A stretch of DNA of 64,000 bases from Candidatus Dormiibacterota bacterium (lineage in GTDB: Bacteria; Chloroflexota; Dormibacteria; Aeolococcales; Aeolococcaceae). The stretch lies in contig DAIUFS010000002.1 of NCBI GenBank assembly GCA_036844485.1, forward strand, positions 11,085 to 75,084, written 5' to 3'. Shown here in pieces: positions 5,978 to 60,034 of this stretch (position 1 is the stretch's first letter; every line of letters begins with the position of its first letter). Under the pieces are notes generated by a model. It saw only the letters and a list, made by a program, of their open reading frames with translations, made no database searches and was not told the DNA's origin. A program made the translations under genes and the position numbers.

Positions 5978-5978
5978 G

Positions 5979-25699: not shown

Positions 25700-25743
25700 G
25701 CAACCGTGTTGGGCTGGAACCGGGCCGGTATCCTTCGGCGGTC

Positions 25744-28457: not shown

Positions 28458-28469
28458 GGGCGACGGAGT

Positions 28470-30525: not shown

Positions 30526-30584
30526 GACCGGGAGGATACGGCTCAGTCGGTCGGTCGCCTCCCGCTCCCTACACTGACGCGCGC

Positions 30585-31340
30585 ATGATCGACAGAGACA
30601 AGTACGCGGCGGCGGCCATCGTGTCGCGCCGCGACCTCGCCCCCGACCTCTGGGTGGTGCGGATCCGACCGGACTGCGAGCTGCCGTTCCGCCCCGGCCA
30701 GTACGTGACCCTGGGGCTGGAGCTGGACGGCCACATCGTCGAGCGGCCGTACTCGATCGCCTCCGATCCCGCTGAGGATGAGATCGAGCTCTTCATCGAG
30801 CGCGTCCCCGACGGGGAGCTGTCGGCTCCGCTCCACGACGTTCCCATCGGGGACACCACCCTGGTGCGCAAGCGGTGCAAGGGGCTGTTCCTCAAGGATG
30901 CCCCGGTGCTCGACCAGGCGCACGTGTTCGTGGCGACGGTCACGGGCATCGCGCCCTTCGTCAGCATCCTGCGCAGCCTGGCCCGGCGCCAGGCCAGCGG
31001 CGAGTGGGTCGCTGACCAGCCGGTGGTGGCCCTCCAGGGCGCCAGCCGCTCCGAAGAGCTCGGCTACGAGGAGGAGTTGCGCGCGCTGGACGACGCCTGC
31101 GACTGGTTCACGTACGTGCCCACCATCAGTCGCCCCTGGGACGATCCCGAGTGGTCGGGCGAGACCGGCCGCGTCGAGGATGTCCTGCGCAAGCACGCCG
31201 ACCTGGCTGGGCTGCGCCCCGGCCATGGTGCCATCTATCTGTGCGGGAATCCCGAGATGATCGGCAAGGCCCACGGCATCATGCGGCGCCGCGGGTTTGG
31301 CGACAAGGAGATCCGCGAAGAGCAGTACTGGCCGGACTGA
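30585..31340 (+). CDS. ferredoxin--NADP(+) reductase (Fpr-type FAD/NAD(P)-binding oxidoreductase)
   Basis: RPGQYVTLGL, RPYSIAS (FAD motif), TGIAPF, and LCGNPEMI near a C-terminal aromatic residue. Confidence 0.85.
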   Translation: MIDRDKYAAAAIVSRRDLAPDLWVVRIRPDCELPFRPGQYVTLGLELDGHIVERPYSIASDPAEDEIELFIERVPDGELSAPLHDVPIGDTTLVRKRCKGLFLKDAPVLDQAHVFVATVTGIAPFVSILRSLARRQASGEWVADQPVVALQGASRSEELGYEEELRALDDACDWFTYVPTISRPWDDPEWSGETGRVEDVLRKHADLAGLRPGHGAIYLCGNPEMIGKAHGIMRRRGFGDKEIREEQYWPD

Positions 31341-31366
31341 AAATCTGAGCACGCCCGGTCGGTCGC

Positions 31367-32074
31367 CTATTTGAACCCGTAGCGGCCCTCGTGGAAGTCG
31401 CCGGTCTCGACCCACTGGTCGATGACAAGGTCGACCACCGCGTCGTTGACCTCGGAGAGGCCGAGCGTGCGAGCGTTGCCCTCGACCGCTTCGAGCACCT
31501 GCCCGCGAACGAAGTCGGGGATGCGCTCGAAGCGGCTCCGCGCCGAGTCCGTCCACGGCAGCGCGTCGCGGTCACGCTCTTCGATGGCGTGCGACACCCG
31601 GCCCCAGAGCTCGTACTTGACCTCCATCTCGACCGGGGTGATGGTGGTGCCCAGCCCCAGCTTGCGAGCCGTCCATTCGACTCGCCATCGGGTCAGGTCA
31701 CGGCAGAACTCGGGCACCTCCGCCAACCTCGCCTCTGCCTCCGGCGTCCAGCTGAACACCACCTCGGTGCCGGTGCGGTCACTGAGTGGGTGGCCATAGC
31801 CGAGCTTCTTGCCGAGCGTCCGGACGAAGAGGTCGGTGATCTCTTCGACGCGATCGCGCTGGGCACGGGCTTCCACCACCCGTTCGGCCATGCCCGCGGC
31901 GCGCTCCGGGTCGATCCGGCTCACTGCCGCGCGATCGCGTCCCGTCTCAGCCGCGCGGTGGGCGTCCGCGGTCCAGGTGAGGGGCGGGTGGGCGGCGCCG
32001 ACGTGCACCGGACAGCCGGCCTGGTCGGCGTCGTGCACCACCGGGCAGCCAGGCTCGTCTCGCGTTTCGGACAT
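31367..32074 (-). CDS. PCP_red-domain protein (two protochlorophyllide-reductase-B C-terminal-like domains) with an N-terminal double GCPV motif
   Basis: FSWTPEAEARLAEVPEFCRDLTRW... and LPWTDSARSRFERIPDFVRGQVLEAVEGNARTLGL match the W-T-x-E-A...IP-x-F-V-R pattern. The N-terminus has GCPVVH and GCPVHV. Confidence 0.7.
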   Translation of the reverse strand: MSETRDEPGCPVVHDADQAGCPVHVGAAHPPLTWTADAHRAAETGRDRAAVSRIDPERAAGMAERVVEARAQRDRVEEITDLFVRTLGKKLGYGHPLSDRTGTEVVFSWTPEAEARLAEVPEFCRDLTRWRVEWTARKLGLGTTITPVEMEVKYELWGRVSHAIEERDRDALPWTDSARSRFERIPDFVRGQVLEAVEGNARTLGLSEVNDAVVDLVIDQWVETGDFHEGRYGFK

Positions 32075-32255
32075 CGGTCAACCCTCCCACGTGTCGCCGC
32101 GCTCGAGGTGATTCTACGCTGAGGTCGGCGGCGTCCCGACGCGGGCGCTCAGGCCCATGACCCCGCTCGCTATCATCGGACGACGCGGTTGCGAGTGGCG
32201 CTCCGGACCGGTCGCGCGCGGCGGTCGACGTTGCATCTGCCTGGCAGGGGAGCGG

Positions 32256-34325
32256 ATGTACTCCACCCTCTACGTCGCCCTCGACAACTCCGAGCACTCG
32301 GACGCCGCCAGCACGGTCGCCCTGGAGCTCGCCTCCGCCTTCGATGCCCGCGTCATCGGCATGCACGTGTACGCGGCGCGGATGCACGACTACCGGTTCA
32401 AGCAGATGGAGTACACGCTCCCCGAGGAGTACCAGGACGAGGCCGAGCTGCTCCGCCAGCGGCGCATCCACGACAGCCTGATCAGCACCGGCCTGGAGCT
32501 GATCAGCGACAGCTACACCGACGTGCTCCGCTACCGCTGTCTGGAGCGCGACGTGCGCTTCGAGGCGCGCATGCGCGACGGGCGCAACTGGGAGGAGCTG
32601 GTCGCCGACGTCGACGAGAGCAGCGACGTCGACCTGGTGATCATGGGCGCGCTCGGCACCGGCGCGGTCAAGGAGTCGCAGCTGGGCAGCGTCACCGACA
32701 GGGTGGCGCGACGCATCCGGCGCGATCTGCTCATCATCCGCAGCACCGGCGACGCCGCCATGGAGGGCGGCATCCTGGTGGCCGTCGACGGCTCACCGCA
32801 GTCGTTCGCCGGCCTGCGCACCGCCCTCGTCCTCGGCAAAGCGCTCGGCAAGCGCGTCGAGGCGGTGGCCGTCTACGACCCCTACCTGCACTACGCCGTC
32901 TTCAACGGCATCGTCGACGTGCTCTCGGAGAAGGCCTCGAAGATCTTCCGGTTCAAGGAGCAGGAGGCGCTCCACGAGGAGATCATCGACACCGGGCTCG
33001 CCAAGATCTACGAGTCCCACCTCCGCGTGGCCCGTGCCACCGCCGCCGAGGAGGGGGTCGACCTGCCCATCACCCTTCTCGACGGCAAGGCGTTCGAGAG
33101 GATCCTGCGCCACGCTCGCGAGACCCGCCCCTGGCTGCTGGTGCTCGGCCGCATCGGCGTCCACTCGGACGCCGCGATGGACATGGGCAGCAACACCGAG
33201 CAGCTGCTCCGGCTCGCTCCCTGCAACGTTCTGGTCAGCAGTGGCACGTTCACCCCACCCATCGACGTCCGCGCCGACGCCTCGGTGGTGTGGACACCGG
33301 AGGCCGAGGAGCGGATGGCAGCGGTGCCGGGCGGGGCGAGGGGCCTGGCACGGACCGCCGTGCTGCGCTGGGCGATGGAGCGAGGCCACAGCGTGGTCTC
33401 GTCCGGCGACGTGGCCACCGCGCTCGACGAGCTGATGCCGTTCGCACGCACCATGCGCCGCATCGCCGAGACCGCGGCCACCGTCGACTCCGCTCAGCGG
33501 GCCATGGTCGACGAGCCGCAGATCCAGGATGCACGCGCCGTCTGTCGCACCTGCGGGTACGCGGCGAGGAGCGACACCCCGCATCGCTGCCCGGTGTGCG
33601 ACAGCGACGCCGGGGCGTTCGAGCGCCTCGACAGCGACGCGCTCCGGGCCACGGCGGCCGGGGAGGGGGACGCGGCGCAGATCGCTTTTGACGGCGCCAA
33701 GCTGGGCTGGACAGTCGAGGCGCGCCGGCTGCTGCAGCAGCTCCCCGCCGGCTACCTGCGCCGCCGCGTCAAGGCGATCGTCGAGAAGCATGCGCGGACG
33801 CGGCGGCTGCCGGCGATCACCGCCGAGGTGGCCGAGCCGTTCGTGGCGCCCGAGCTCGACGCTCTCGACGTGAATGCCGGGCCGCATCGAGCCCCCTTGG
33901 GCGTCGAGGGGCACACCGGACCGCACGTCGACCAGCGCCGGCGCCTTCCCTGGACCGATGAGGCAGACGACCGCATCGAGCGCATTCCCGCGGGCTTCCT
34001 GCGCAACCTCGCCACCGAGCAGATCGAGCGCCTCGCCGTTGCCCTGGGCGCTCCGGAAGTGGGCGTGCTGCACGTCGAGGCCGGCATCGCTGAGGCGCGC
34101 GCCCGGATGCAGCGCGACGGTGTCGGGGCCGATCCCGCGGCGACCTGTCCCGTCGGGGCCGAGGGGGCGCAGGCTGCACCTGGGTGTCCGGTCCATCACC
34201 AGGCGGAGGGCACGGGGCGTTCCGGCGGTGCGGCGGCACCCCGAGGTGGCTCTCTCAACGAGATAACCGCCCCGGTCATCGACGACCTCGGCAGACGCAC
34301 GACCACGGCGCTGCCAGACGCCTGA
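32256..34325 (+). CDS. multidomain protein: 2 x universal stress protein domain + 3 x PCP_red-like domain + rubredoxin-like zinc ribbon + C-terminal double CPV motif
   Basis: USP motifs: LYVALDNSEHS...VIMGALGTG; ILVAVDGSPQS...LLVLGRIGVHS. PCP_red-like: VVWTPEAEERMAAVP, LGWTVEARRLLQQLPAGYLRRRV, LPWTDEADDRIERIPAGFLRN. Zinc ribbon: CRTCGY..x10..CPVCDS. Start set at the ATG at 32256. Confidence 0.75.
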   Translation: MYSTLYVALDNSEHSDAASTVALELASAFDARVIGMHVYAARMHDYRFKQMEYTLPEEYQDEAELLRQRRIHDSLISTGLELISDSYTDVLRYRCLERDVRFEARMRDGRNWEELVADVDESSDVDLVIMGALGTGAVKESQLGSVTDRVARRIRRDLLIIRSTGDAAMEGGILVAVDGSPQSFAGLRTALVLGKALGKRVEAVAVYDPYLHYAVFNGIVDVLSEKASKIFRFKEQEALHEEIIDTGLAKIYESHLRVARATAAEEGVDLPITLLDGKAFERILRHARETRPWLLVLGRIGVHSDAAMDMGSNTEQLLRLAPCNVLVSSGTFTPPIDVRADASVVWTPEAEERMAAVPGGARGLARTAVLRWAMERGHSVVSSGDVATALDELMPFARTMRRIAETAATVDSAQRAMVDEPQIQDARAVCRTCGYAARSDTPHRCPVCDSDAGAFERLDSDALRATAAGEGDAAQIAFDGAKLGWTVEARRLLQQLPAGYLRRRVKAIVEKHARTRRLPAITAEVAEPFVAPELDALDVNAGPHRAPLGVEGHTGPHVDQRRRLPWTDEADDRIERIPAGFLRNLATEQIERLAVALGAPEVGVLHVEAGIAEARARMQRDGVGADPAATCPVGAEGAQAAPGCPVHHQAEGTGRSGGAAAPRGGSLNEITAPVIDDLGRRTTTALPDA

Positions 34326-34326
34326 C

Positions 34327-35580
34327 ATGCTCGGCCTCCAGGTCACCACGCCCGATTTCCCCGGCATCGGCAACAACGCGTCGGTGGGAATCGTCTTCCT
34401 GGTCCACATTCTCATCGCCGAGTTCAGCCTCGGGGCCATCACTCTGGCGGTGGCGGCGGAGTGGCACCACGTGCGCACCGGCGACGAGCGCACCGCCCGA
34501 TACGCGCGCAGTCTGGCCAACACCTATTACCTGGTCTTCAGCCTGGGTGCCACCTTCGCGGTGTTCGCCGTCGTGCTGCTCACCGGCCTGTGGGCCAACG
34601 AGTTCGGACAGCTGGTCAACAAGTTCGTCTGGCTGGTGGCGTTCGCCTTCAGCCTGTTCTTCGTGCTGGTGCCGCTCCTGGTCTGGTATCGCAATACCTT
34701 CACATCCATGGCTCCGCGCCGTCACGTCCTCCTCGGGACGGCGGTGGGCGTTCTCCAGAGCATGTTCATGGTGCTCATCGTTGGCATCGACGCGTACCTC
34801 ATCAATCCCGTCAACGCCGGGCTCACGGAACCGGCGTTCAACCCGGTGTACTGGCCGCTGCTCATCCACCGTCTCATCGGCAACGTGAGCTGGACCGCGC
34901 TGTTCTGCGCGGCGTACGCGGCTGTCCGGCTGCGCGGAGGTCGCGGTGACGCCCCAGAGCGCGCGTTCCAATCCTGGGCGGCCCGGGTCAACCTGCGCAT
35001 CGGCCTGCTCACCGGCCTGCTCATGCCGATCGTGGGCTTTGCGCTCATCGAGGTGATCCGCCAGAGCGAGCCGGGCTACTTCGACAACCTTCTCAGCGGC
35101 GGGACCGCCGCGTTCATGGTGGCCCAGGAGTGCCTGGTGGGGGTCATGTTCATCGGCGGCAACATCGCCCTGGCCAGCGAGGACGGCGGCCCGCGCGAGT
35201 GGTCGATGGCCAGCCGGGCAGCGATCGCCGTGTCGGTCGCCGGGATGACGCTGGCCGCCCTTCCCAGCGCGGTGCTCGGTGGCGACCTCAACGTGCTGCG
35301 CTACTGGGGGCTGGGCGCCGCCACCGTGGTGACCGCCGCGCACACGCTCTCACGTCTGCGCGGCCGCCGCCGGCGCCAGGACGACTCGCTGCGCGTCACC
35401 GGCTCGGTGTCGCGGATCGGGCGCAACGCGGTGCTCGCCGTCGGCACCGTTGCGGTGGTCACGTCCCTGCTGATGGGCTACATCAAGGAGCACGCCCGCG
35501 GCGACTACGCGGTGTATGGCGAGCTGCGCCAGGTCGACGCTCATCAGCCCTATCAACCCCCGCAGAGCCTCTACCCGTGA
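34327..35580 (+). CDS. cytochrome bd subunit I (CydA)-like membrane protein, paralogue 1, short Q-loop
   Basis: LVHILIAEF (TM1 His), LIHRLIGNV (TM5 His) and C-terminal GYIKEHARGDYAVYGEL (compare the CydA E-GRQPW-x-V-x-G motif). 417 aa, about 9 TM segments. Confidence 0.7.
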   Translation: MLGLQVTTPDFPGIGNNASVGIVFLVHILIAEFSLGAITLAVAAEWHHVRTGDERTARYARSLANTYYLVFSLGATFAVFAVVLLTGLWANEFGQLVNKFVWLVAFAFSLFFVLVPLLVWYRNTFTSMAPRRHVLLGTAVGVLQSMFMVLIVGIDAYLINPVNAGLTEPAFNPVYWPLLIHRLIGNVSWTALFCAAYAAVRLRGGRGDAPERAFQSWAARVNLRIGLLTGLLMPIVGFALIEVIRQSEPGYFDNLLSGGTAAFMVAQECLVGVMFIGGNIALASEDGGPREWSMASRAAIAVSVAGMTLAALPSAVLGGDLNVLRYWGLGAATVVTAAHTLSRLRGRRRRQDDSLRVTGSVSRIGRNAVLAVGTVAVVTSLLMGYIKEHARGDYAVYGELRQVDAHQPYQPPQSLYP

Positions 35581-35834
35581 CCCCGCTGCTGGTCGTCCGA
35601 GCCGCGGAATTCCAGGGCGCCTTGTACTACTCGCTGCTGCTGTTCGTCATCCTCTTTCTCGTCCTGCTGGGCATCGGCTACGCCCTGGTCGGAGTTCGCG
35701 GGCTCTGGCGCAGCGGCGAACGAGGTCCGGCCACAGTTCTCGGCGGAGCCCTCACCGTCGCCTTTCTCGCTCTCGTCGGGATGTACGTCGTCGCCGTCGG
35801 CGGGCTGTTCGCGGCTCCCGGGCTCGGGACGTGA
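35577..35834 (+). CDS. small two/three-TM membrane protein (85 aa), unknown function
   Basis: GTGA overlaps on both ends. Hydrophobic stretches LYYSLLLFVILFLVLLGIGYALV and ALTVAFLALVGMYVVAVGGLF. Confidence 0.5.
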   Translation: MTPLLVVRAAEFQGALYYSLLLFVILFLVLLGIGYALVGVRGLWRSGERGPATVLGGALTVAFLALVGMYVVAVGGLFAAPGLGT

Positions 35835-36328
35835 AGCAGCTCACCCGTCGCGAGATGCTGATCCGGGGCACCGGACTGGGCATGGGGCTGGTCGGGGTGA
35901 TGCTCAGCGTTCCCGCGGTGGGCTTCCTGCTCAGCCCCCTCTTCACCAAGCAGAAGGTTGTGTGGGTGACGGTCGGACCGATCGACAACGTGCCGGTCAA
36001 TCAGCCGACCCCCCTGATCGCGGAGGTCCCGGTTGGAACCGGGTACCCGACGCCGCCCGTCAAGCGAATTGTGTACGTGGTCAAGACCCCGGACGGGCAG
36101 ACCCGCGCGCTCAGCAACATCTGCACGCACATGCAGTGCGACGTGCACTGGGACCCTGCCCTGGGCAATTTTCTCTGCCCGTGCCACGGAGGCCTGTACG
36201 ACATCGAGGGCAGGAACGTTGGTGGGCCTCCCCCGCAACCACTTCCGCAGTGGGTGCACCGAATCCACACCGACGCCGAGGGCCGCACCATCCTCGAGAT
36301 CGAGAACAAGCTCGACGAGTCGATCTGA
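35831..36328 (+). CDS. Rieske [2Fe-2S] subunit with Tat signal
   Basis: Twin-arginine motif TRREMLIRG followed by a TM segment. Cluster ligands CTHMQC and CPCHGG. Confidence 0.88.
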   Translation: MKQLTRREMLIRGTGLGMGLVGVMLSVPAVGFLLSPLFTKQKVVWVTVGPIDNVPVNQPTPLIAEVPVGTGYPTPPVKRIVYVVKTPDGQTRALSNICTHMQCDVHWDPALGNFLCPCHGGLYDIEGRNVGGPPPQPLPQWVHRIHTDAEGRTILEIENKLDESI

Positions 36329-36339
36329 ATGCACCGCTC

Positions 36340-37536
36340 ATGATTGTCAGCCGCTGGCTCACACGACCACTGAAGGCGCGACTGCGCGCGGGGATGGAGT
36401 GGTTCGACGACCGCACCGGAGCCACCGAGCTTCTCCACAAGGGGCTCTATGAGGCAGTCCCCAAGAAGGGTGGCTGGGCGTATGCGCTGGGCAGCGCCAC
36501 CCTGGCGCTGATCCTGCTCCAGCTCTTCAGCGGGATCTTCCTGCTGCTCGACTACGTGCCCTCGGTCACCGACGCCTTCAACAGCCTGGATTACCTGCGC
36601 AGTGGCGACGCCTTCGGCGCCTGGGTGCGCGGGCTCCACCTCTGGGGCTCGTACATGCTCATCTTCGTGATCGGGCTGCACATGCTGCGCACCTTCCTCT
36701 CGGCGAGCTACAAGCGGCCGCGTGAGCTCAACTGGGTGACGGGAGCGCTCCTCTTCTTCCTGGTGCTTGGGCTGGCCATCACCGGCGCGATGCTGCCCTG
36801 GGACGAGGCGGCGTACTGGACGACCACGGTGGTGACCAACATCCCCCACTACCTCCCGGTGATCGGGGACGGCATCCGGACGCTCTGGCGCGGGGGGGAC
36901 TTCGTCGGACCGATCACCCTGACGCGCACCTTCGCCATCCATGTCTGGGTGCTGCCCTTCCTGCTGTTCACCCTCATCGGCGGTCACCTCTACCTTCTCC
37001 GTCGCCACGGCGAGTTCGGTGCCTGGGTCAACTACGACAGCGCTCCCGGCGAGGAAGGGGAGAGGCAGATCGCCGAGCGGATTCGCCGCGCCGAGCCCCC
37101 CTACCCGACCAAGCGGATCTCACGCCGCTACGCGGCGCCGAGCGAGACGGTGCCGTTCTTTCCCGACCAGATCTTCAAGGACGTGGTGTTGAGCACCGCC
37201 CTGGTCGCGGTCATCTTCGTCATGGGACTGATCTCCGGAGCGCCGCTCGACCAGGCCGCCAATCCGGCGACGTTCAGCTACGTGCCCACGCCGGAGTGGT
37301 TCTTCCTCCCCCTCGACCAGTTCATGGTCGTGGCACCGGCCAACCCGCTCATCGCCATTGGGGTCTTCGGCGTTCTCGGCCTGGGCGCAGCCCTGATGGT
37401 GCTCCTGCCGTTCATCGATCGCTCCCCGGAGCGCCGTCCACTGCGCCGCCCTGAGGTGATCGTGCCCGCCCTCTTCATGGCCTTCACGGTGATCTTCTTC
37501 GCTGTTCTCGGCATCAACCGGCTGTACAACCTGTGA
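36340..37536 (+). CDS. cytochrome b (fused b6 + subunit-IV-like) of a Rieske/cyt b complex
   Basis: Two bis-His pairs (HLWGSYMLIFVIGLH; HVWVLPFLLFTLIGGH) and a Qo-site PEWF (PEWY-type) motif. Confidence 0.9.
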   Translation: MIVSRWLTRPLKARLRAGMEWFDDRTGATELLHKGLYEAVPKKGGWAYALGSATLALILLQLFSGIFLLLDYVPSVTDAFNSLDYLRSGDAFGAWVRGLHLWGSYMLIFVIGLHMLRTFLSASYKRPRELNWVTGALLFFLVLGLAITGAMLPWDEAAYWTTTVVTNIPHYLPVIGDGIRTLWRGGDFVGPITLTRTFAIHVWVLPFLLFTLIGGHLYLLRRHGEFGAWVNYDSAPGEEGERQIAERIRRAEPPYPTKRISRRYAAPSETVPFFPDQIFKDVVLSTALVAVIFVMGLISGAPLDQAANPATFSYVPTPEWFFLPLDQFMVVAPANPLIAIGVFGVLGLGAALMVLLPFIDRSPERRPLRRPEVIVPALFMAFTVIFFAVLGINRLYNL

Positions 37537-38978
37537 GCCCGCGCATCCTTCTCTCATCCCTGTCGCCGGTGAGCGGCAACATCGTCACCAACGGCGTCCT
37601 GGTCGCCGTGGTGGCGCTTCTGCACATCCAGATCGCCGCCTTTCTCACCGGATCATCGACGCTGGCGCTGGTCTCCGAAGCGGTTTCGATGGCCCGCGGC
37701 GACGAGCGCCACGGCCGCGTCGCCCACATGCTGGTGAAGGGGCAGGTCTACGTCTTCAGCTTCGGCTCGGCGGTGGCCATCTTCTTCATGATCTTCGTGC
37801 TCCTCGGCCTGTGGGGCATCTTCTGGACCGCCTTGCAGCAGATCGCCTTCTGGGTGCTGGTCTTCGAGGCGGCCATGTTTCTCACCGAGATCGTGCTGCT
37901 GTACAGCCTGTACGCCAACTGGGATCGGCTGCAGGCGCATCGCCGTGCCCGCCTCGCCATGCTGCTCCTGCTCAACATCTCGCTGTGGTGGCAGATGTTC
38001 CTCATCGACGTGGTGGCGTCCTTCATGCTCACGCCCAACGGCGGCGACGTCAGCATCCTCAATCAGATCCTCAACCCCACCAACCTGCCGCTGACCATCC
38101 ATCGCACCATCGGCAACGTCGCCTGGGCGGGCGCGGTGGTCGCCTTCATCGGTGGCTTCAACTACCTGCGTCTCACCAGGCGGCAGCGTGAGCCCACACC
38201 CGACGCTCCGCAGTCGATGCGACCGCTGCGGTCGATCGGCGCCATGGCCGCCGGCCACCTGGAATGGGAGGCACAGCGCACGGAGATTCTCCACTGGGAG
38301 TGGGTGGCGCACTGGGGAGTGATCTGGGCGGTGGCGATGACACTGCTCCAACCATGGGTCGGCTACTCCTACGCCAAGGAGGTCCAGCTCCACGCCTACG
38401 GAGCCTGGTACACGATGATGTTCGGCGACCTCTCCAACGTGTTTCTGCTGCAGATCTTCCTGCTCGGCTCGATCTTCACACTCGGAGCGCTGTACTTCTG
38501 GCGTCGCATGGTGCGCTCCGGTGCCGCGCATGCCCGCCGTCAGCTGATCCTGGCGGTGGCCCTCATCCTCATGACCGTGCTGGCGGTGCAGCCGGCGTGG
38601 TTCGCTCCGACCTACGCGGATGCCATCGCCGCCGCGGGTAACCGGGCATGGTGGGATGGGGGCCTGCTCAACCCCATCGGCGACTTCATCCCCTTCAAGG
38701 CGGCGGCCCTGATCGGCATGGTGCTGTTCGGCCTCTGGTCGGTGACCAGCTATCTGGCGGCGGTGTCGCGCGGCCGGGTCAAGCCCGGCGGCAGCGGCCG
38801 GGGTGCGCAGCGAGCCGCGCTGGTGATCGGCGTGGCGGTGAGCATGATGATGCTGGTCATGGGCGTGATCCGTGAGCATTCACGCCAGCCCTACCTTGTT
38901 TACGGCGAGATCACGCTGCACCAGCAGATCACCAACCACGCGCCGTCGCCGACCTCTCTCCAACAGAGCCAACCGTGA
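37533..38978 (+). CDS. cytochrome bd subunit I (CydA)-like membrane protein, paralogue 2
   Basis: LLHIQIAAF, VFEAAMFLTE, TIHRTIGNV and C-terminal GVIREHSRQPYLVYGEI. Aligns without gaps to paralogue 1 over TM1-TM5. Confidence 0.7.
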   Translation: MSPRILLSSLSPVSGNIVTNGVLVAVVALLHIQIAAFLTGSSTLALVSEAVSMARGDERHGRVAHMLVKGQVYVFSFGSAVAIFFMIFVLLGLWGIFWTALQQIAFWVLVFEAAMFLTEIVLLYSLYANWDRLQAHRRARLAMLLLLNISLWWQMFLIDVVASFMLTPNGGDVSILNQILNPTNLPLTIHRTIGNVAWAGAVVAFIGGFNYLRLTRRQREPTPDAPQSMRPLRSIGAMAAGHLEWEAQRTEILHWEWVAHWGVIWAVAMTLLQPWVGYSYAKEVQLHAYGAWYTMMFGDLSNVFLLQIFLLGSIFTLGALYFWRRMVRSGAAHARRQLILAVALILMTVLAVQPAWFAPTYADAIAAAGNRAWWDGGLLNPIGDFIPFKAAALIGMVLFGLWSVTSYLAAVSRGRVKPGGSGRGAQRAALVIGVAVSMMMLVMGVIREHSRQPYLVYGEITLHQQITNHAPSPTSLQQSQP

Positions 38979-39403
38979 GGATCCCGCTGGGCGCAGTCGC
39001 GCTACGCATTCCCATCTTCCTCTCCGCGCATGAGGAGTTGCGCACAGCCATCGAGCCGCCCTGGCCGCGATGGATGCGTGACCTCTACCAGCTCGAGCAG
39101 GCGCAGGACGAGGGCATCGACGTCGACGCCGAGGAGACCACCGTTCCGGCAGCGCTCGGCGCGCTGTCGTCACGGCTGCGCCAGCGGCTGGAGCTGATCT
39201 CCTCGGTTGCCAGTGGACTGCGGCGCGACGGATGGGCTCTTGACATCGACGGCGACTGTCTGGTGGCCAGCAGGGTGAGCAACCCGCGGCACGCGCTGGA
39301 GATGCTCGAGGACGCGGGACTGGCGGGACCGCTGTGCGCCGTAGCCGACCTCGACGAGTCCGGGTGGCCGCGGCTGTACATCGGTCTGGCGAGCACGGCA
39401 TGA
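38975..39403 (+). CDS. hypothetical protein (142 aa)
   Basis: GTGA overlap upstream and ATGA overlap downstream. No family recognised. Confidence 0.5.
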   Translation: MRIPLGAVALRIPIFLSAHEELRTAIEPPWPRWMRDLYQLEQAQDEGIDVDAEETTVPAALGALSSRLRQRLELISSVASGLRRDGWALDIDGDCLVASRVSNPRHALEMLEDAGLAGPLCAVADLDESGWPRLYIGLASTA

Positions 39404-39771
39404 GCGCCACTGTCCTCATTGCCGAGGACGAACCGATGATCGGGCGGATCCTCGCCGAGAAGCTGACCCGCGAGGGCTATAAGGTGTTGCGGACCGCCAC
39501 CATCGAGGGCTTGATGTCCGCGCTGGCAATCTCTGACGTCGCGCTCGTCGATGCCACTCTCGACGGCGACGGCATCGACGCCATGCAGGGTCTCGCGGCC
39601 GCGGCGATCCATCCCCGCGCCGGCTGGTTCGCCATGGTGGAGAGCCGCGCCGCCGACCAGGGCATCCGTGCGGTTCGCGCCGGCGCCGCGGGGGTGATCA
39701 TCAAGCCGTTCAAGCCGACGGCGGTGGCGGCCAAGGTGGCCACCCTGCTCGCCACGGTGGCGGTGCCGTGA
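39400..39771 (+). CDS. stand-alone response-regulator receiver domain
   Basis: VLIAEDEP (acidic pair), ALVDATLDGDG (acceptor Asp context), VIIKPF (conserved Lys). Confidence 0.8.
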   Translation: MSATVLIAEDEPMIGRILAEKLTREGYKVLRTATIEGLMSALAISDVALVDATLDGDGIDAMQGLAAAAIHPRAGWFAMVESRAADQGIRAVRAGAAGVIIKPFKPTAVAAKVATLLATVAVP

Positions 39772-40742
39772 CCCTGCTCGCCGGCGCCGTCGCGGACGAT
39801 CCCACGGACGAGCACCTGGCCACCGAGGTCGTGCGCGCCCGAGGTGTGCTGCGTCGTTACCGCAATGGCCGTGGGGTGGGCCCGGTGGACCTCTGTCTGC
39901 GGGCCGGCGAGGCGTTCGCTCTGATGGGCCGCAACGGCTCCGGCAAGACCACGCTGCTCCGCCTGCTCGCCACCGTGACGCGTCCGCACAGCGGCGAGCT
40001 GCGCTGGTTCGGCGGCGACGCGACGCGGGCCCGGGCACATCTCGGGCTGGCTCTCGACGCGGCCATGGAGGACGCCGGGCTGACGGGACGGCAGGCGACC
40101 CACTTCTGGTGCGCGCAGTGGATCGCCGATGCGGCGGAGGTGTCGTCCCGCACCGATCTGGTGTTGCGGAGGCTGGGACTGGCCGGGGCCGCCGATGAGC
40201 CCGTCGGCTCGTACTCGTACGGGATGCGCCGCCGCCTCGCCCTTGCCGCCGCCGTTGTCCACGAGCCCGCTCTGGCGCTGCTCGACGAACCCACCGCCGG
40301 GCTCGACCCCGACGGGTGCACCGAGCTGGGCGAGGTGATCGCCGAGCGATCACGGCACGGCCTCAGCACGGTGATCGCCAGCAACGATCCCGGCTTCGTC
40401 GAGGCGGTCGCCGACCGCGTCGCGTTCCTCGAGGAGGGGGCTGTGGTGCGCTGCGCGTCGCCGCGTGACCTGCTCGCCGGCCTCCCCCAGGGACGTGTCG
40501 CGGAGCTTGTCATCGAGGAAGGTTGCTCTTTGGCGGCGCTGCGCGCGGTGCCGGGTGTCGTGGATGTGACCGACGACGGCGGCGCAGCCAGGGTTCGCTT
40601 CGACGGCGACCACACCATCGCCGCCCTGGTTGCGGCGGCCGACGCGCCGGGCGGCCGCCTCCGCGAGCTGCGCCTGCGCCGCCCCGACCTCGCCGACTGC
40701 TTCCATGACCTCACCGGTCGCGCCCTGCGGGAACAGACGTGA
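39768..40742 (+). CDS. ABC transporter ATP-binding protein (ABC-2/DrrA-like)
   Basis: Walker A GRNGSGKTT, signature YSYGMRRRL, Walker B LALLDEPTAGLD. Confidence 0.85.
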   Translation: MTLLAGAVADDPTDEHLATEVVRARGVLRRYRNGRGVGPVDLCLRAGEAFALMGRNGSGKTTLLRLLATVTRPHSGELRWFGGDATRARAHLGLALDAAMEDAGLTGRQATHFWCAQWIADAAEVSSRTDLVLRRLGLAGAADEPVGSYSYGMRRRLALAAAVVHEPALALLDEPTAGLDPDGCTELGEVIAERSRHGLSTVIASNDPGFVEAVADRVAFLEEGAVVRCASPRDLLAGLPQGRVAELVIEEGCSLAALRAVPGVVDVTDDGGAARVRFDGDHTIAALVAAADAPGGRLRELRLRRPDLADCFHDLTGRALREQT

Positions 40743-41497
40743 TCGGAGATGCCGCCGCCCTGCGGGCGACCGCCTGGCGCTCGCGCAGGATGCCGCGCAG
40801 CGTGGCCGCGCGCGAGCTCGCCATCGTGCTCAGCCGGCCACGTGCGCTGGCCATCAAGGCGGGGCTGCCCCTTGCCCTGGCGGTCGTGCTGGTCGCGGGT
40901 CATGCACCGACCTTCTGGGCGGGGATGCTGCTCACCGTCCTGGTCGCCATGGTCGGTGCGGTGGGCACGGCGGTGACGGTGAGCCGGGCCAGGGACGCCG
41001 GTTTTCTGACACGACTGGCAGCAACTCCCGGGTCTCGGCCGCGGTTGCTGGTCGGGTGGGTCCTGGCCGCCGCCGCGGTGGACGTGGTCCAGCTGCTACC
41101 GGTGGCGCTGGCTGCCTGGATCGACGGAGGCGGAGGCGCCACCGAGCTCGTGGTGCTGGTCACCGTTCTCGCCGCCACACTGGTGGTCACCAATGTGCTG
41201 GGCAGTCTCATCACCCTGGCCGCGGCGAGCGCCGCCGAGGTGCTGCTCGATGTCGTCGTCGTGCTCGCGCCCCTTCTCTACCTGGGCGGCCTGTTCACCG
41301 GTGTCCCGGCAGCCGGATGGCGAGCCTGGGTAGCCGCGGTCGACCCGTTCAGCCATCTCCACTCCGCATTCATCGGCGTGCTCGGGGGATCGGCGACGTA
41401 TCCCGGTGGCGTCGATGTGGTCGCGGCGCTGGGAGCGGCAGCGGCGGCGACCGCCGTCCTCGCCGGTCTCAGCCGGCGCATCCTGGAACGTGATTGA
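40739..41497 (+). CDS. ABC-2 type transporter permease
   Basis: Six hydrophobic segments. GTGA overlap with the ATPase gene. Confidence 0.62.
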   Translation: MIGDAAALRATAWRSRRMPRSVAARELAIVLSRPRALAIKAGLPLALAVVLVAGHAPTFWAGMLLTVLVAMVGAVGTAVTVSRARDAGFLTRLAATPGSRPRLLVGWVLAAAAVDVVQLLPVALAAWIDGGGGATELVVLVTVLAATLVVTNVLGSLITLAAASAAEVLLDVVVVLAPLLYLGGLFTGVPAAGWRAWVAAVDPFSHLHSAFIGVLGGSATYPGGVDVVAALGAAAAATAVLAGLSRRILERD

Positions 41498-41498
41498 T

Positions 41499-42161
41499 GT
41501 GCCGCGGCGCGTCCGCCGGGGCGCCGCGCTGCTGGTTGCCATGACCGCGCTGTCCGGTTGTGGGTCTGTGTCCTCCGTCCTCGATGCCGGCGCGCTGGGC
41601 CTGCCGTCGCGCAGCTCACCCGCCGCCCTGGCCACCGCCACCGTGTCGACCAGTCCAGACGGCGGCATCTACCGCAACCCCGACCACCTCGAGGTCATGC
41701 TGGTGGCGCGACACAACGTCGACTCCATCGCCGGCCAGCTCGGATCAGCGTCCTCGACGTGGACGCAGCTGCGCAGCTTCGGCGACTTCACCGTGATCGC
41801 CCTGCGTCTTCGCGATGACGGCAAGGTGAGCTCGGATCCGCAGCTCGCCGACCTGCAGATGGCCAGCGACTACGCCCCCACAGGCACCGCCAGCGGACCG
41901 CTGCGCCACTTCTACCACCCCACCTTTCCGCTGGCGCTGGTCGCCGACTCGAACCCCGGCGACGGCTGCAGCATCCATCTCGATCCCGGCCACAGCGGCG
42001 TCGCCATCCTCATCTACCCGCCGGTCAACCTGCCCAGCACGCTGGTGTGGGGCCGCTTCGGGGACTTCGTGCTCAGCGTGCCCACCGGCGGAGCGCTGCC
42101 GCCGCTGTCGGGCGGGCTGCACGCCGAGGCCTGCACCCGGCCCGCGGCGTCGCCGACGTGA
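41499..42161 (+). CDS. predicted lipoprotein, unknown function
   Basis: Signal peptide with lipobox (RRGAALLVAMTALSGCG). The start could be the GTG at 41490 or at 41499. Confidence 0.6.
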   Translation: MPRRVRRGAALLVAMTALSGCGSVSSVLDAGALGLPSRSSPAALATATVSTSPDGGIYRNPDHLEVMLVARHNVDSIAGQLGSASSTWTQLRSFGDFTVIALRLRDDGKVSSDPQLADLQMASDYAPTGTASGPLRHFYHPTFPLALVADSNPGDGCSIHLDPGHSGVAILIYPPVNLPSTLVWGRFGDFVLSVPTGGALPPLSGGLHAEACTRPAASPT

Positions 42162-42727
42162 GCTCGCGCTCGCGAGCGCGCCGCCGTCAGCGCGTCGAGC
42201 TGCCCAGCGCCGGCCAGACGGTGGTCTCGCTGGTGCTCCACCGCGTGGAGGAGGGTGGCCCCTGGCCGCTGACCCGGGTCCTCACCGCGCTGGGCGGGGA
42301 CGCGGTCGAGCGCATCGGTGTGGCTCGGGCCCTCGGGGATCGCCGCGGTGTGCCGCTGGTGCACTCCCAGGAGGTGCGCTGGCGCGAGCACGCGCTCTTC
42401 CTCGAGGCCCGGCACGGGCGTGACGGTGTCGATGAGCTCAGCCTGGAGATGCCTCCGTGGGACGACCTCGTGGCCACGGTCGCCGATGACGAGGTCTGGC
42501 GGCTCATCGACACCGTCGCGGTCGCCGCCGACGCGCAGTTCGGGTCGATCGGAGACGGCGAGCCGCCTGAGACGGTGCTGCCGGACGACGCCTCGACCCT
42601 CCGCGCCCAGCTGCGACGCCATCTCGCCCTGCTCCTGCCGGAGTGGACGGGGGAGGATGTCGCCGCGGCCGGGGCCACCCCGGCGCGCGTGCTCGACAGC
42701 AGCGGCCTGGTGGTGGTGACCGGGTGA
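42158..42727 (+). CDS. hypothetical protein (189 aa)
   Basis: GTGA overlaps at both ends. Acidic, soluble-looking. No family recognised. Confidence 0.5.
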   Translation: MSSRSRARRRQRVELPSAGQTVVSLVLHRVEEGGPWPLTRVLTALGGDAVERIGVARALGDRRGVPLVHSQEVRWREHALFLEARHGRDGVDELSLEMPPWDDLVATVADDEVWRLIDTVAVAADAQFGSIGDGEPPETVLPDDASTLRAQLRRHLALLLPEWTGEDVAAAGATPARVLDSSGLVVVTG

Positions 42728-43080
42728 GCCTCCACGCCCGCCTGGGGGTTGCGGTGTTGCTTGTGGCAGCGGTGGGAGCCCTCCTCGCTCTGCTCGCGCG
42801 CAACCGTCCGGGTGCCGTTCCCACCGTGCGTGTCTTCGTCAGGCTCTGCGCCGCCGCCGCCGCCGTGGAGGCGTTCATCGGGCTGGCCATGGTGGTCGCC
42901 GGCCAGCGCCCCGCCGAGGCCATCCACTTCTTCTACGGCGCGGCGACCGCCATCCCCATCCCCGCCGCCGACCTGCTGGCACGCCGCGTCCACCCGCAGT
43001 CGGAGATGCTCTACCTGCTCGCCGGGGCAGTCGCCACCGTGCTGTTCGGTCTTCGCGCCGTGGCCACAGGCAGCTCGTAA
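42724..43080 (+). CDS. small four-TM membrane protein (118 aa)
   Basis: The GTGA overlap makes it the last gene of the chain. Hydrophobic profile. Confidence 0.5.
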   Translation: MSLHARLGVAVLLVAAVGALLALLARNRPGAVPTVRVFVRLCAAAAAVEAFIGLAMVVAGQRPAEAIHFFYGAATAIPIPAADLLARRVHPQSEMLYLLAGAVATVLFGLRAVATGSS

Positions 43081-43086
43081 CTCCGC

Positions 43087-43842
43087 TCACGCGGCGACCG
43101 CACCGGGCTCCTCGATGACCACCGTGTGGCGCCGGCGCAGTCGCACCAGGGCACCGAGAACCGGCGCGGCGAGGAGCGCGACCAGGATGGCGTTGCCGGC
43201 CGCACGGAAGCTGTCGTACACCAGCGATGTGGCCGCGTAGAACCGCCCGAAGCGCAGGGCCGTGTCTGCGGCATTGAGGCCGGGCACCCACCCGAAGTCG
43301 GCGGCCCCGCGGAAGAAGGTCCAGTCCCACACGTCCATGACCGCCCCGTATGCGAAGCCGGTGGCGACGCCGACGATGGCGAGGATGACGACGTCACGGG
43401 GCTGCGGGGTGCGGCCGCGCCGGGCGCTGCCGGCGAGGCCAGCGGCCGCACCCACCCAGCCGGCGGCGATCATCTCGTACGGCAACCACGGCCCCACCCC
43501 AGCGGTCACCAGCGCCGACACCAGAAGGGCGGTGGCACCGCAGAGGAACCCGTACTCCGCACCCATCGCGTAGCCGGCGCAGAGGATGAGCAGGAACATC
43601 GGTGAGAAACCACCGATTCCGCTCACCAGCGCCAGTCGCAGCGCGGAGTCGAGCGCGGCGATGACCGCGATCAGCGCCAGGCCGCGGGTGTCGAGGCGGC
43701 GGCTCATGATCTCGATCGCCAGCAGCACCACCACACAGCCGATGCTCACCGCCGCCGCTGCCGCGGTGCCGGGCGGTCCCGGACCAAAGAGCGGCCACAG
43801 GAAGAGCGCGACCCCAGCAGCGCTGATCGCGGCCAGTCTCAC
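43087..43842 (-). CDS. ECF transporter substrate-specific (S) component
   Basis: About 6 TM segments. Last gene of the ECF operon; its start overlaps the ATPase stop. Confidence 0.6.
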   Translation of the reverse strand: MRLAAISAAGVALFLWPLFGPGPPGTAAAAAVSIGCVVVLLAIEIMSRRLDTRGLALIAVIAALDSALRLALVSGIGGFSPMFLLILCAGYAMGAEYGFLCGATALLVSALVTAGVGPWLPYEMIAAGWVGAAAGLAGSARRGRTPQPRDVVILAIVGVATGFAYGAVMDVWDWTFFRGAADFGWVPGLNAADTALRFGRFYAATSLVYDSFRAAGNAILVALLAAPVLGALVRLRRRHTVVIEEPGAVAA

Positions 43843-45434
43843 GGTGCCGTCACCGCCCGGGCGCGCGCCGCCGAGAGCACAGTGGCGACCGCCTCGACCG
43901 TGACCGGACCCGGACTGCTGAAGAGCGCGCCCAACTGTGTGGCGTGGTCGTTTGCCGATCCGCTGAGAGCCATCTCCGGCGGGCCGCTGTCGTGCACCAG
44001 TCCCCCGGCGACGACGAGCACGCGATCGGCGAGGGCGGCGGTGAGGTCGCTGTCGTGAGTGGCCACGATCACCGACGTACCCCGAGCGGCGAGCATGCGA
44101 ACGGCGGCCACCAGGCCGTCGCGCGCCGGGCCGTCCATCCCCCGGGTCGGCTCGTCGAGTAGGGCGATCACCGGCGACCCGCAGAGGATCGCGGCGACCG
44201 CGGCTCGCTGGCGCTCGCCGCTGCTGAGGTCGCGCGGATCGCGGGGGCCGAGCGCGTCGACGCCGAGGGCGCGGAGCAGGCTGGGCAGTGCCTCCTCCTC
44301 GATAGGGCCAGAGCTGCGTCGGTCTGCTCGCATGGTCCAGGCGATCTCCGCAGCGACGGTCTCGCGATGGAGGAGCGCCGCGGGATTCTGCGGCAGGTAG
44401 GCGACGCGGCCCGGCTCACGCCACACGGTCCCCGATCGCGGCGAGGCGAGCCCGGCGATGACGCGGAGCAGGGTGGTCTTGCCGGCGCCGTTGCGTCCCA
44501 TCACAGCCACGACCTCGCCGGCGTGGCCGGCGGCGCCGACCCCGCGGAGCAGGTCGTCGTGGCCTGCGACCACCTCGTCGAGACGCCAGGCCGGAACCCC
44601 CGGCCGGCCCGCGGCGCGCGGCATGACCGGCGGCACTGCATTGGAAAGGTGCGATCGCAGCGAGGCGGGCTCGAGGAGAGGGGGGGTCCATCCCATTGCC
44701 GCGGACAGGCGCACCACCTGGGGAGCACTCTCCAACGAGGCGGCGGCGGCCCGGGCGTCGGCTGGTCCGGTGAGGCGGCCGCCGGCGATGCGCAGCACGG
44801 AATCCGCCACCGGGAGGAGATGGTCGAGGCGGTGCTCGGACACGGCGAGGGCCGTCCCCGCGTCGCGCAGCTCGCGGCAGAGCTCCAGCAGTGCCCGAGC
44901 GCCCGGGGAATCCAGCTGGGAGAACGGTTCGTCGAGCACCAGCAGCCGCGGGCGCAGCACCAGTGCGCCAGCGACGGCGACACGCTGGCGCTCGCCGCCG
45001 CTGAGGCTGGCGATGGTGCGGTCGCGGAGATGGCCGATGCCGAGCCGGTCCATGACCTCGCCGACGCGCCGGCGCATCTCGGCCGGCGACGTCCCCAGGT
45101 TCTCGAGGCCGAAGGCGATGTCTCGTTCGACCGTGGCATGGACCGCGTGGCGCTCGGCGTCCTGGAAGACGAAGCCCACCGAGGTGGCCAGCCGCCGCGG
45201 GGCGGTGCGCAGAACGTCGTGGCCGTCGACCGCCGCGCGCCCGCTGATGCGGCCGCCGTGCAGGTGCGGGACCAGCCCGTTGAGCAGGCGAAGGAGCGTC
45301 GATTTACCGCCCCCCGACGGGCCGGCGACCAGGCAGATGCCGCTGTCGAGGGCGAGGTCGACGCAGTCCAGAGCCGGCCCGGCCATCTCCGGGTAGCTGT
45401 AGCGCAGCGTGGCGATGTCTACGAGCGGTGCCAT
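43839..45434 (-). CDS. ECF transporter fused double ATPase (EcfA1-EcfA2)
   Basis: Two Walker A motifs (GPSGGGKST; GRNGAGKTT), two signatures (LSGGERQRV; LSSGERQRA), two Walker B motifs. The start is the ATG at 45434 or at 45464. Confidence 0.9.
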   Translation of the reverse strand: MAPLVDIATLRYSYPEMAGPALDCVDLALDSGICLVAGPSGGGKSTLLRLLNGLVPHLHGGRISGRAAVDGHDVLRTAPRRLATSVGFVFQDAERHAVHATVERDIAFGLENLGTSPAEMRRRVGEVMDRLGIGHLRDRTIASLSGGERQRVAVAGALVLRPRLLVLDEPFSQLDSPGARALLELCRELRDAGTALAVSEHRLDHLLPVADSVLRIAGGRLTGPADARAAAASLESAPQVVRLSAAMGWTPPLLEPASLRSHLSNAVPPVMPRAAGRPGVPAWRLDEVVAGHDDLLRGVGAAGHAGEVVAVMGRNGAGKTTLLRVIAGLASPRSGTVWREPGRVAYLPQNPAALLHRETVAAEIAWTMRADRRSSGPIEEEALPSLLRALGVDALGPRDPRDLSSGERQRAAVAAILCGSPVIALLDEPTRGMDGPARDGLVAAVRMLAARGTSVIVATHDSDLTAALADRVLVVAGGLVHDSGPPEMALSGSANDHATQLGALFSSPGPVTVEAVATVLSAARARAVTAP

Positions 45435-46246: not shown

Positions 46247-46249
46247 CCG

Positions 46250-53407: not shown

Positions 53408-53467
53408 TGGGGTTCCTAGCGTCGCGGGGTGGTTGGCTGCCCGCCGCCTCGCCATGATACCGAATCA

Positions 53468-60022: not shown

Positions 60023-60034
60023 GATCGCCCGGTC

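Follow-up and report, generated by a model that had tools for sequence, protein, structure and literature searches.

Gene order and junctions of the cluster

We studied a gene cluster at positions 32256-43080 of a 64,000-nucleotide (nt) stretch of DNA from a Candidatus Dormiibacterota bacterium (contig DAIUFS010000002.1), in the following called the window, which has a G+C content of about 70% as a whole. The cluster consists of 13 consecutive open reading frames (ORFs) on the + strand, numbered g01 to g13. They encode a protein with USP and PCP_red domains (g01), a respiratory core of two bd-like membrane proteins, a small membrane protein, a Rieske protein and a cytochrome b (g02-g06), a soluble protein (g07), a stand-alone receiver (g08), an ABC-2 type transporter pair (g09, g10), a predicted lipoprotein (g11) and two further proteins (g12, g13). 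We consider it probable, at about 0.68, that the block is one conserved Dormibacterota operon, which was assembled from separable modules around the respiratory core.

The original prediction had been made from the sequence alone. All of its 13 genes, their coordinates and every junction could be reproduced, and independent gene callers agree. That is, eight junctions are GTGA overlaps (35577, 35831, 37533, 38975, 39768, 40739, 42158, 42724), one is an ATGA overlap (39400), and two have one-base spacers (TGAcATG at 34323, TGAtGTG at 41495). The largest intergenic gap within g01-g13 measures 11 nt (36329-36339). Recorded gene calls on identical contigs (ENA ERZ27248627 k119_808281; NCBI GCA_036564445.1 DATCPB010000164.1) provide the same 13 genes, where starts differ between the callers for g10 and g11 only. 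Codon composition backs all 13 + strand frames, i.e., third-position GC is 0.82-0.92 and second-position GC is low as expected. Solely g12 is ambiguous by composition when compared with an antisense ORF, and homology in 42 loci decides for g12. The earlier domain calls (USP/PCP_red, bd-like, Rieske, cytochrome b, receiver, ABC-2, lipoprotein and unknowns) are likewise borne out by Pfam and NCBIfam. The gene inventory was right for the 13 genes but missed a 14th cluster member, here called u1 (31367-32074, - strand).

Within the block, 4-nt overlaps are found at 9/12 junctions versus about 3/20 of the other same-strand neighbour pairs in the window, a comparison that rests on a crude ORF caller. 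Such overlaps are frequent elsewhere too, e.g., in 3/6 same-strand pairs just downstream in locus L080. Since they are common in this compact high-GC genome, they mark a tight operon and no special mechanism. We also assessed for related loci whether a start codon is available that overlaps the upstream stop by 4 nt. This holds for most loci at g06/g07 (50/53), g08/g09 (40/50), g09/g10 (41/50), g11/g12 (38/44) and g07/g08 (32/53), and for 37/76 at g05/g06.

A consensus scan of the block found no sigma-70-like promoter, which is weak evidence as the consensus may not apply to this phylum. Terminator-like sites between 30500 and 44500 do not exceed the shuffled expectation, again based on a scan that is weak for this phylum. 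A single co-transcribed unit is very likely and the most economical reading, because no gap exceeds 11 nt and because gene order as well as overlaps are kept in 43/43 assessable loci of the closer clade introduced below (clade 1). We thus infer one transcript, in accordance with the single long operon that had been proposed for the block.

The respiratory core

The core is framed by two CydA-like membrane proteins, namely the 417-amino-acid (aa) product of g02 (34327-35580, +), which is of the OR-N5b type, and the 481-aa product of g06 (37533-38978, +), which is of the OR-N5a type. Both are distant relatives of CydA and paralogous to each other (26% identity, E = 1e-22). For g02, Pfam Cyt_bd_oxida_I is matched with 1.6e-10; this match spans profile positions 6-239 only, and the g06 profile retrieves no CydA from the PDB, both of which would be consistent with a missing Q-loop region. 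Homologues of g06 carry a precomputed PF01654 assignment, and the g06 family is rare, with 416 matches among 1.84 billion representative proteins (profile search, E <= 1e-3). Kyte-Doolittle hydropathy, which is a crude method, places 11 windows of g02 and 12 of g06 over the threshold, several of which overlap each other.

The residues of both proteins fit the published OR-N5a/b residue table, with g06 as the 'a'-type and g02 as the 'b'-type, where positions were matched by spacing and motif without a joint alignment to the reference sequences. In g06, we find H31, E112/E119 (spacing 7), Q154 as the Gln at the S140 position, H190, and E448 within the motif REHSRQPY. The columns of the listed residues are invariant in 18 homologues, and H31 and H190 are 159 residues apart, just as H24 and H183 are in the OR-N5a reference. 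In g02, H27 and H181 are present, the third transmembrane (TM) segment is without the Glu pair, and E388 takes the S/E/T position. Here, H27 aligns with H21 of Geobacillus CydA (5doq_A) in a weak match.

Three genes lie between the paralogues. The first, g03 (35577-35834, +), encodes an 85-aa protein with two hydrophobic TM segments. Based on a family hidden Markov model (HMM), it is found between the bd-like and Rieske genes in both clades studied below, and Ktedonobacterales and Myxococcales have a 73-78-aa gene in the same slot; g03 is thus probably a small subunit of the complex. It is followed by the Rieske [2Fe-2S] protein g04 (35831-36328, +; Pfam Rieske 2.2e-11). Its cluster boxes are CTHMQC at position 98 and CPCHGG (CPCH at 116), i.e., the CxHxxC and CxCH boxes of Rieske proteins, and it has a P-side export signal composed of the twin-arginine motif TRREML and a subsequent hydrophobic anchor. 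Finally, g05 (36340-37536, +) encodes a 398-aa protein that resembles a fusion of cytochrome b6 and subunit IV (Pfam Cytochrome_B 6.6e-42; NCBIfam cytochrome b6 1.4e-60, below cut-off). Its His pairs 100/114 and 201/216 show b6-type spacing and are kept in 52-53 of 53 orthologues, and the Qo-site motif PEWF is located at 318. As g05 is without any Cys, there is no haem ci site. The placement of g04 and g05 between the two paralogues is conserved in 79 loci. CxxCH is absent from all 14 cluster proteins; the core is thus not a canonical bc1, b6f or bcc complex.

The core matches a published arrangement and is not new. Murali, Gennis and Hemp (2021) described OR-N5a/5b as two CydA-like proteins of about 10 helices without a quinol site and proposed a quinol-oxidising bd-type O2 reductase without c-type cytochromes, with the quinol donor as in bc1/b6f. 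Their OR-N5 references are from Rubrobacter xylanophilus (WP_143528031/WP_143528035) and a 'Chloroflexi bacterium' (TMC48000/TMC47996), the reference a/b pair shows 28-32% similarity, and Dormibacterota are listed with OR-N. The cluster shares the order OR-N5b / small TM protein / Rieske / cytochrome b6-subunit IV / OR-N5a, that is, two paralogous CydA-like proteins, probably without Q-loop, in one operon with petA and petB/petD. Furthermore, 'a' has the Glu pair and 'b' has none, the His19/His186 equivalents are kept, and Met393 is probably lacking. The accessions TMC48000 and TMC47996 are four numbers apart, which fits the spacing of g02 and g06. In contrast to the published OR-N5, to which we liken the core by residues and operon context, the window adds a USP/PCP_red partner, g03, g07 and the block of receiver, ABC-2 and lipoprotein genes, none of which is mentioned by Murali et al.

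Two further systems are related less closely. OR-N1 and OR-N2 of Nitrospira, Nitrospina and Candidatus Manganitrophus belong to the same OR-N family and are found in operons with alternative donor modules, including petABD for OR-N1 (Murali et al. 2021). They have 14 helices and come with c-type cytochromes or NXR-like modules, whereas the window cluster is without CxxCH. The actinobacterial bcc-aa3 supercomplex (QcrCAB-CtaCDEF) also wires a menaquinol-oxidising Rieske/cytochrome b unit to an oxidase without a soluble carrier, and its Rieske box II CPCHGG is common to g04. The likeness is one of logic only, since bcc-aa3 uses a haem-copper oxidase and a dihaem cytochrome cc link, while the window encodes a bd-type protein pair and no cytochrome c. 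The core itself adds another member to a group that has been catalogued but not characterised. What may be novel is the conserved set of helpers, chiefly the USP/PCP_red partner.

In the core, menaquinol would be oxidised at the Qo site of cytochrome b and one electron would be passed to the Tat-exported Rieske cluster. From there, it would move directly to the (P-side) haems of the OR-N5a/b pair, because the cluster encodes no c-type cytochrome. O2 would be reduced at the OR-N5a site, which retains the His19-, Glu99/Glu107- and Glu445-equivalents. As a whole, the core would thus represent a supercomplex of complex III plus a bd-type oxidase. We infer both this electron path and O2 as acceptor.

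We know of no biochemical characterisation of any member of the OR-N branch of the bd superfamily. Dormibacterota live in large numbers in soil and permafrost and have not been cultured. Their terminal oxidases are therefore of ecological interest, and across the phylum the operon is a candidate for a quinol oxidase supercomplex without cytochrome c.

Conservation of the cluster and the USP/PCP_red proteins

The alignment of g06 homologues gave 79 loci from species-representative genomes, which we searched with tblastn and with family HMMs built from orthologues. Nearly all loci are labelled Dormibacterota, along with a few labelled Chloroflexi, Chloroflexota or Chloroflexia and a few apparently mis-binned records. 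They fall into two main groups. Clade 1 (L001-L056; g06 identity 47-93%) keeps the whole g01-g13 order on one strand, with g08-g12 found in 43/43 assessable loci and g01 in 38/38. Clade 2 (20 loci among L057-L079; g06 identity about 40%) keeps only g02-g07; next to the core, g01 is found in 0/20 and g08-g12 in 0/17 loci, and the flanking genes are the housekeeping genes ppk, rpsT and nth. An intermediate state is observed for L078, where a g01-u1 fusion and an ABC pair lie upstream of g02 while g07 is on the opposite strand. These data show a genuine cluster that is old and tightly packed, yet modular. Since g01 and g08-g13 are gained or lost together and since the ABC pair of L078 stays with g01, a functional tie of these genes to the oxidase is indicated. 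In the clade-2 locus L087, a cupredoxin gene is located right after the core (12258-12692, -), which hints at other electron partners.

The first gene of the operon, g01 (32256-34325, +), encodes a 689-aa cytoplasmic protein with tandem ATP-type USP domains and three PCP_red repeats (Pfam Usp 1.2e-37 in two stretches, PCP_red 1.6e-22). Its C-terminal half also contains a zinc ribbon of the rubredoxin-like kind (CRTC...CPVC) and ends in a disordered tail, where two Cys-Pro motifs are located at aa 631 and 644 (window positions ~34146-34190). The ATP motifs G-x2-G-x9-G-S are located at aa 131 and 298. With AF2, a model of mean pLDDT 82 was obtained, and Foldseek relates it to Rv2623 of M. tuberculosis (4.5e-15) and to the ATP-bound TTHA0350 of T. 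thermophilus (TM-score 0.84, normalised to the target), with 3cis and 3ab8 as matched structures. The likeness concerns the fold of residues 1-330 with both ATP motifs. With its two-copy fold and these motifs, g01 has the features of an ATP-type tandem USP and is predicted to bind nucleotide. In contrast to Rv2623 and TTHA0350, it has long helical insertions with invariant His residues in each USP domain, and it adds the PCP_red repeats, the zinc ribbon and the Cys-Pro motifs.

The divergently oriented u1 encodes a 235-aa cytoplasmic protein with two PCP_red repeats and the N-terminal Cys-Pro motifs GCPVVHD and GCPVHV (Cys-Pro at aa 10 and 21). C-terminal models of BchB match it at 4e-11, and Pfam PCP_red is recorded for it on the source contig. 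It is divergent from g01 and retained upstream in clade-1 loci. In four of them (L029, L030, L052, L056), u1 is on the + strand between g01 and g02, and fusions of u1 and g01 are found in L078 (865 aa, five PCP_red stretches) as well as in L083 from Ktedonobacterales (856 aa).

Nearly all orthologues in L001-L056 have one or two CP[V/F/A]xH motifs each in the C-terminal tail of g01 and at the N-terminus of u1. The sequence around these motifs is otherwise unconserved, and the g01 segment is predicted to be disordered (pLDDT ~30). The long USP/PCP_red forms from other phyla keep Cys-Pro motifs as well ('AMCPVPE', 'GKCPFAH'). Cys-Pro motifs are the best-known transient haem-binding motifs, typically located in flexible loops and often with a nearby His (PMC10377097). 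As g01 and u1 present the Cys-Pro dipeptide within a flexible segment, their sequences resemble haem-regulatory motifs and may bind haem. The conserved motifs thus suggest a role in haem handling. In this case, g01 and u1 would be nucleotide-binding factors for haem handling or for haem/redox sensing that serve the assembly or control of haem-rich OR-N complexes via their Cys-Pro motifs.

We had also considered PCP_red as a 'lid' on protochlorophyllide and withdrew this idea. PCP_red aligns to BchB positions 454-503, while the BchB helix that contacts protochlorophyllide comprises positions 398-420 (PMC12022308; PMC4071322).

The 181 nt between u1 and g01 (32075-32255) form a divergent region with conserved -10-like hexamers. 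TATCAT (32171-32176, +) is a candidate -10 box for g01, and ATTCTA (32111-32116; TAGAAT on the - strand) is one for u1. Almost every clade-1 locus has TATCAT, TACAAT or TAGCAT at a similar distance, while ATTCTA is retained in close relatives, and these AT-rich hexamers are conserved against a background of 70% G+C. It is plausible that both hexamers serve as -10 boxes of two divergent transcripts. The ATG at 32256 (+) is preceded by a Shine-Dalgarno-like GGGGAG. Folding of the g01 5' untranslated region is not unusual when compared to shuffles (z = 0.32), and an Rfam scan of 29000-47000 found no credible leader or riboswitch.

The USP/PCP_red family is widespread. Outside the phylum, a g01-type gene adjoins bd-like OR-N genes in 8 lineages. 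Three of these contexts, i.e., a metagenome-assembled genome (MAG) of Ktedonobacterales, a Myxococcales MAG and an unassigned metagenome contig, have it beside an OR-N5/Rieske/cytochrome b core, and USP/PCP_red is the only accessory gene that is kept with the core there. We sampled four further contexts, from Alphaproteobacteria, Burkholderiales, Dehalococcoidales and Phycisphaerae (L088-L091). In 4/4, the USP/PCP_red gene lies between an OR-N2-like cluster, i.e., a bd-like gene with cytochromes c and in 3/4 an EB_dh subunit, and a gene for a radical-SAM/SPASM protein with C-terminal PCP_red. This protein is most similar to NirJ2 and to AhbD, a haem b synthase. The respective coordinates are 10092-12766 (L088), 9452-12205 (L089), 9204-11790 (L090) and 12798-14009 (L091). 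A protoporphyrinogen oxidase homologue above the curated cut-off is present in 2/4 (L088, L089). Within the window, PCP_red is limited to g01 and u1, i.e., no radical-SAM-PCP_red gene is found there. L090 also has a Mrp/ApbC-like ATPase and a stand-alone PCP_red protein. In the unassigned contig (L086), the Rieske/cytochrome b/bd-like module follows a molybdopterin/4Fe-4S/NrfD oxidoreductase (1230-6503), which again hints at other electron partners.

We found nothing on this cluster in the literature on PCP_red/PF08369 or on Dormibacterota respiratory chains. The cross-phylum partnership of USP/PCP_red proteins (g01, u1) with bd-like OR-N genes thus seems to be unreported.

A wider question is how bd-type oxidases acquire their haem cofactors. 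USP/PCP_red proteins with Cys-Pro motifs, next to AhbD/NirJ-like and in two loci HemY-like genes, provide testable hypotheses on the haem supply of OR-N proteins. A far-reaching one is that the tandem-USP/PCP_red proteins represent a dedicated, unrecognised pathway for delivery or maturation of haem, possibly of a modified haem, to the OR-N branch. In other phyla it would work with the AhbD/NirJ-like radical-SAM-PCP_red protein and the protoporphyrinogen oxidase homologue; in one Dormibacterota clade, an ABC-2 exporter gated by the receiver, a lipoprotein and two orphans would be added to it and act on the outer face of the membrane. We regard this as speculative and rather unlikely.

The alternative that fares best concerns the same two proteins. 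g01 and u1 could be general stress or energy-state regulators that bind ATP or cAMP like Rv2623 and tune the oxidase without any relation to haem, such that the Cys-Pro motifs would form a thiol redox switch or a metal site. The tandem USP fold with its ATP motifs is consistent with this, and so are the short forms without Cys-Pro motifs, the position of PCP_red off the protochlorophyllide-contacting helix, and the Cys-Pro motifs of HO-2, which can act as a thiol/disulfide switch (PMC2742820). On the other hand, the only other protein known to contain PCP_red is a tetrapyrrole enzyme, PCP_red is here fused to AhbD/NirJ-like radical SAM enzymes near haem proteins, a protoporphyrinogen oxidase gene adjoins in 2/4 loci, and the CPxH pattern fits haem-binding CP(H) peptides (PMC10377097). 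Regulation unrelated to haem is thus possible, though rather less probable than not.

The accessory genes and alternative readings

With regard to the accessory genes, g07 (38975-39403, +) encodes a 142-aa soluble alpha/beta protein, and its gene comes directly after g06 in every locus of clade 1 as well as in 20/20 of clade 2. Its homologues are from Dormibacterota only, i.e., g07 is a Dormibacterota-specific addition to the core. Its AF2 model (pLDDT 78.7) has no significant Foldseek match in the PDB (best E = 0.1, TM-score 0.34).

The subsequent g08 (39400-39771, +) is a 123-aa stand-alone receiver (REC; Pfam Response_reg 6.6e-10). The window protein has E9/D10, D51 and K102. At the phospho-acceptor position D51, 34 of 46 orthologues have D and 10 have E, while N and Q were seen once each. 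At D10, 23 orthologues have D and 15 have G; at K102, 32 have K and 11 have T; D46, P103, F104 and K105 are invariant. The receiver is in part degenerate among its orthologues, and some lineages may carry a pseudo-receiver. No cognate histidine kinase is encoded in the cluster. A metagenome protein (P0059, 744 aa, PF00072) covers 65% of g06 at 85% identity and has a receiver domain. Its length is about that of g06, g07 and g08 combined, which may reflect a gene fusion, a frameshift or merged gene calls.

The ABC pair consists of the DrrA-like ATPase g09 (39768-40742, +; Pfam ABC_tran 3.2e-26) and the ABC-2 type permease g10 (40739-41497, +; ABC2_membrane 2.3e-08), which has about six TM segments and an ambiguous start (40739, or 40802 in the NCBI call). 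The best NCBIfam model for g09 is drrA (2.4e-45, below cut-off), with CcmA models at 4e-28; overall, DrrA and DrrB scores for the pair are far below the cut-offs. Walker A and B of g09 are invariant in 49 orthologues. Its signature is xS[F/Y]GMRRR instead of LSGGQ (aa 149-156), and the H-loop His is replaced by Asn in 47/49 orthologues (aa 203-208). The protein may be a slow or regulated ATPase.

The predicted lipoprotein g11 (41499-42161, +; alternative starts 41490 and 41541) has the lipobox LSGC with Cys21. Invariant in 25 orthologues are a TSPDGGIY.N motif and two further Cys (157, 212), which probably form a disulfide. None of the 25 members matches Pfam, and no PDB match was found. An assignment of g11 to DUF4352 found no support (hhalign probability <=2%); DUF4352 proteins are found near the core in L083 and L086. 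Next, g12 (42158-42727, +) encodes a 189-aa soluble protein, conserved in the 42 loci mentioned above, with no Pfam family (3/25 members match DUF6415, best 0.002) and no PDB relative. The last gene, g13 (42724-43080, +), encodes a 118-aa membrane protein with three to four TM segments by hydropathy and was detected in 36 clade-1 loci.

Together, g08-g13 most likely form a module for export or maturation on the envelope side; it would be expressed along with the oxidase, and the receiver might gate it. A role on the outer face is a guess by analogy. CydDC, CcmAB and NosFY-NosL are ABC systems that are needed for the maturation of periplasm-facing redox enzymes, and NosFY is an ABC-2-type pair that works with a lipoprotein. 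The likeness, which we treat as a lead only, is that an ABC ATPase and a permease are co-encoded with a respiratory enzyme. In contrast to these systems, g10 belongs to the generic ABC2_membrane family, and neither NosL nor any other family is matched by g11.

Several observations weigh against one operon whose modules all serve an O2-reducing core. Clade 2 is without g01 and g08-g13 beside the core, i.e., these genes are not required in cis. For the core, no purified OR-N5 member was found in the literature, such that O2 reduction is deduced from conserved residues; the Met ligand of haem b558 is absent from the OR-N family, and no PDB relative of g06 was found by profile, even at E = 1. For the USP/PCP_red partner, PCP_red represents the extreme C-terminus of BchB (TIGR01278 positions 454-503 of 512). 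As this is outside the contacting helix, the link to tetrapyrroles is one by association, and short forms of about 400 aa have no Cys-Pro motif. Finally, g07, g11, g12 and g13 are without informative homologue or fold. With g09 lacking the H-loop His and the phospho-acceptor of g08 not being universal, the add-on may not be a canonical exporter or phospho-relay.

Some of these points lead to the alternative that g08-g13 are an unrelated export or resistance operon, i.e., a DrrAB-like ABC-2 system with its own small regulator, that was packed behind the core by genome compaction in one lineage. This is in accordance with the absence of the block from clade 2 and from other phyla, with the daunorubicin-type DrrA subfamily as best (below cut-off) family of g09, and with no detectable link of g11-g13 to respiratory assembly families. 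We nevertheless consider it improbable: adjacency with 4-nt overlaps is maintained in 43/43 loci over g06 identities of 47-93%, the block is gained or lost jointly with g01 (38/38 and 43/43 versus 0/20 and 0/17), and even the moved ABC pair of L078 is still placed between g01/u1 and g02. If the helpers were unrelated, a well-delimited operon model for the annotation of these genomes would still result.

Another alternative concerns the core itself, which might not reduce O2. Here, the OR-N5 pair would be a haem-b module and the Rieske electrons would go to a cupredoxin or to an extracellular or periplasmic partner, or the system would run in reverse in another quinone-linked pathway. OR-N proteins are without Q-loop and Met ligand and their function is predicted only, the clade-2 locus L087 has its adjoining cupredoxin gene, and the L086 module is located directly after the molybdopterin/4Fe-4S/NrfD oxidoreductase. 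Also, OR-N relatives in nitrite oxidisers are discussed in the Nitrospira literature as anchors for other enzymes. This reading is doubtful given that g06 retains the His19-, Glu99/Glu107- and Glu445-equivalents, i.e., O2-site and proton-channel residues of bd oxidases, and that no other terminal reductase is encoded in the Dormibacterota cluster.

The strongest form of the original prediction, i.e., that all 13 products form one obligate machine with coupling-fixed stoichiometry and a built-in phospho-relay input, is very improbable in spite of the nine 4-nt overlaps, the absence of gaps above 11 nt and the order and overlaps kept in 43/43 clade-1 loci, since the sister clade has g02-g07 only between ppk, rpsT and nth, L078 has its ABC pair upstream, other phyla keep USP/PCP_red alone with the core, 4-nt overlaps also occur frequently at other places of this genome, no histidine kinase accompanies g08 with its variable Asp (34/46 orthologues, Glu in 10), and one would hardly expect a respiratory complex to have soluble regulators and an ABC exporter among its stoichiometric subunits. 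To call the block 'not a textbook operon' was also an overstatement, as its core is the published OR-N5a/b plus petA/petB/petD arrangement. The concern that the accessory genes might never co-occur with the core in related genomes is not borne out, since they do co-occur in more than 40 species-level genomes. We thus retain one modular operon around the respiratory core as the preferred reading.

Downstream, only 6 nt separate the operon from the stop codon of a convergent operon for an ECF-type transporter (43087-46246, -), which encodes an S component, a duplicated ATPase and a CbiQ-like T component. No terminator-like structure was detected between g13 and this operon (43081-43086). Other respiratory or quinone-related genes of the window are located at 53304-55104 and 60023-63256 and encode a YceI-like protein, a membrane-anchored DUF2231-Rieske protein and NuoF/NuoG-like complex I subunits. 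Upstream of the cluster, two paralogues of class Ib (Trp/Tyr-type) aminoacyl-tRNA synthetases lie less than 2 kb apart (25435-26778, +; 27321-28469, -). A gene for an FNR-like FAD/NAD(P)H oxidoreductase (30585-31340, +) is convergent with u1 and kept upstream only in the closer relatives L004-L006, L012, L021, L023 and L055.

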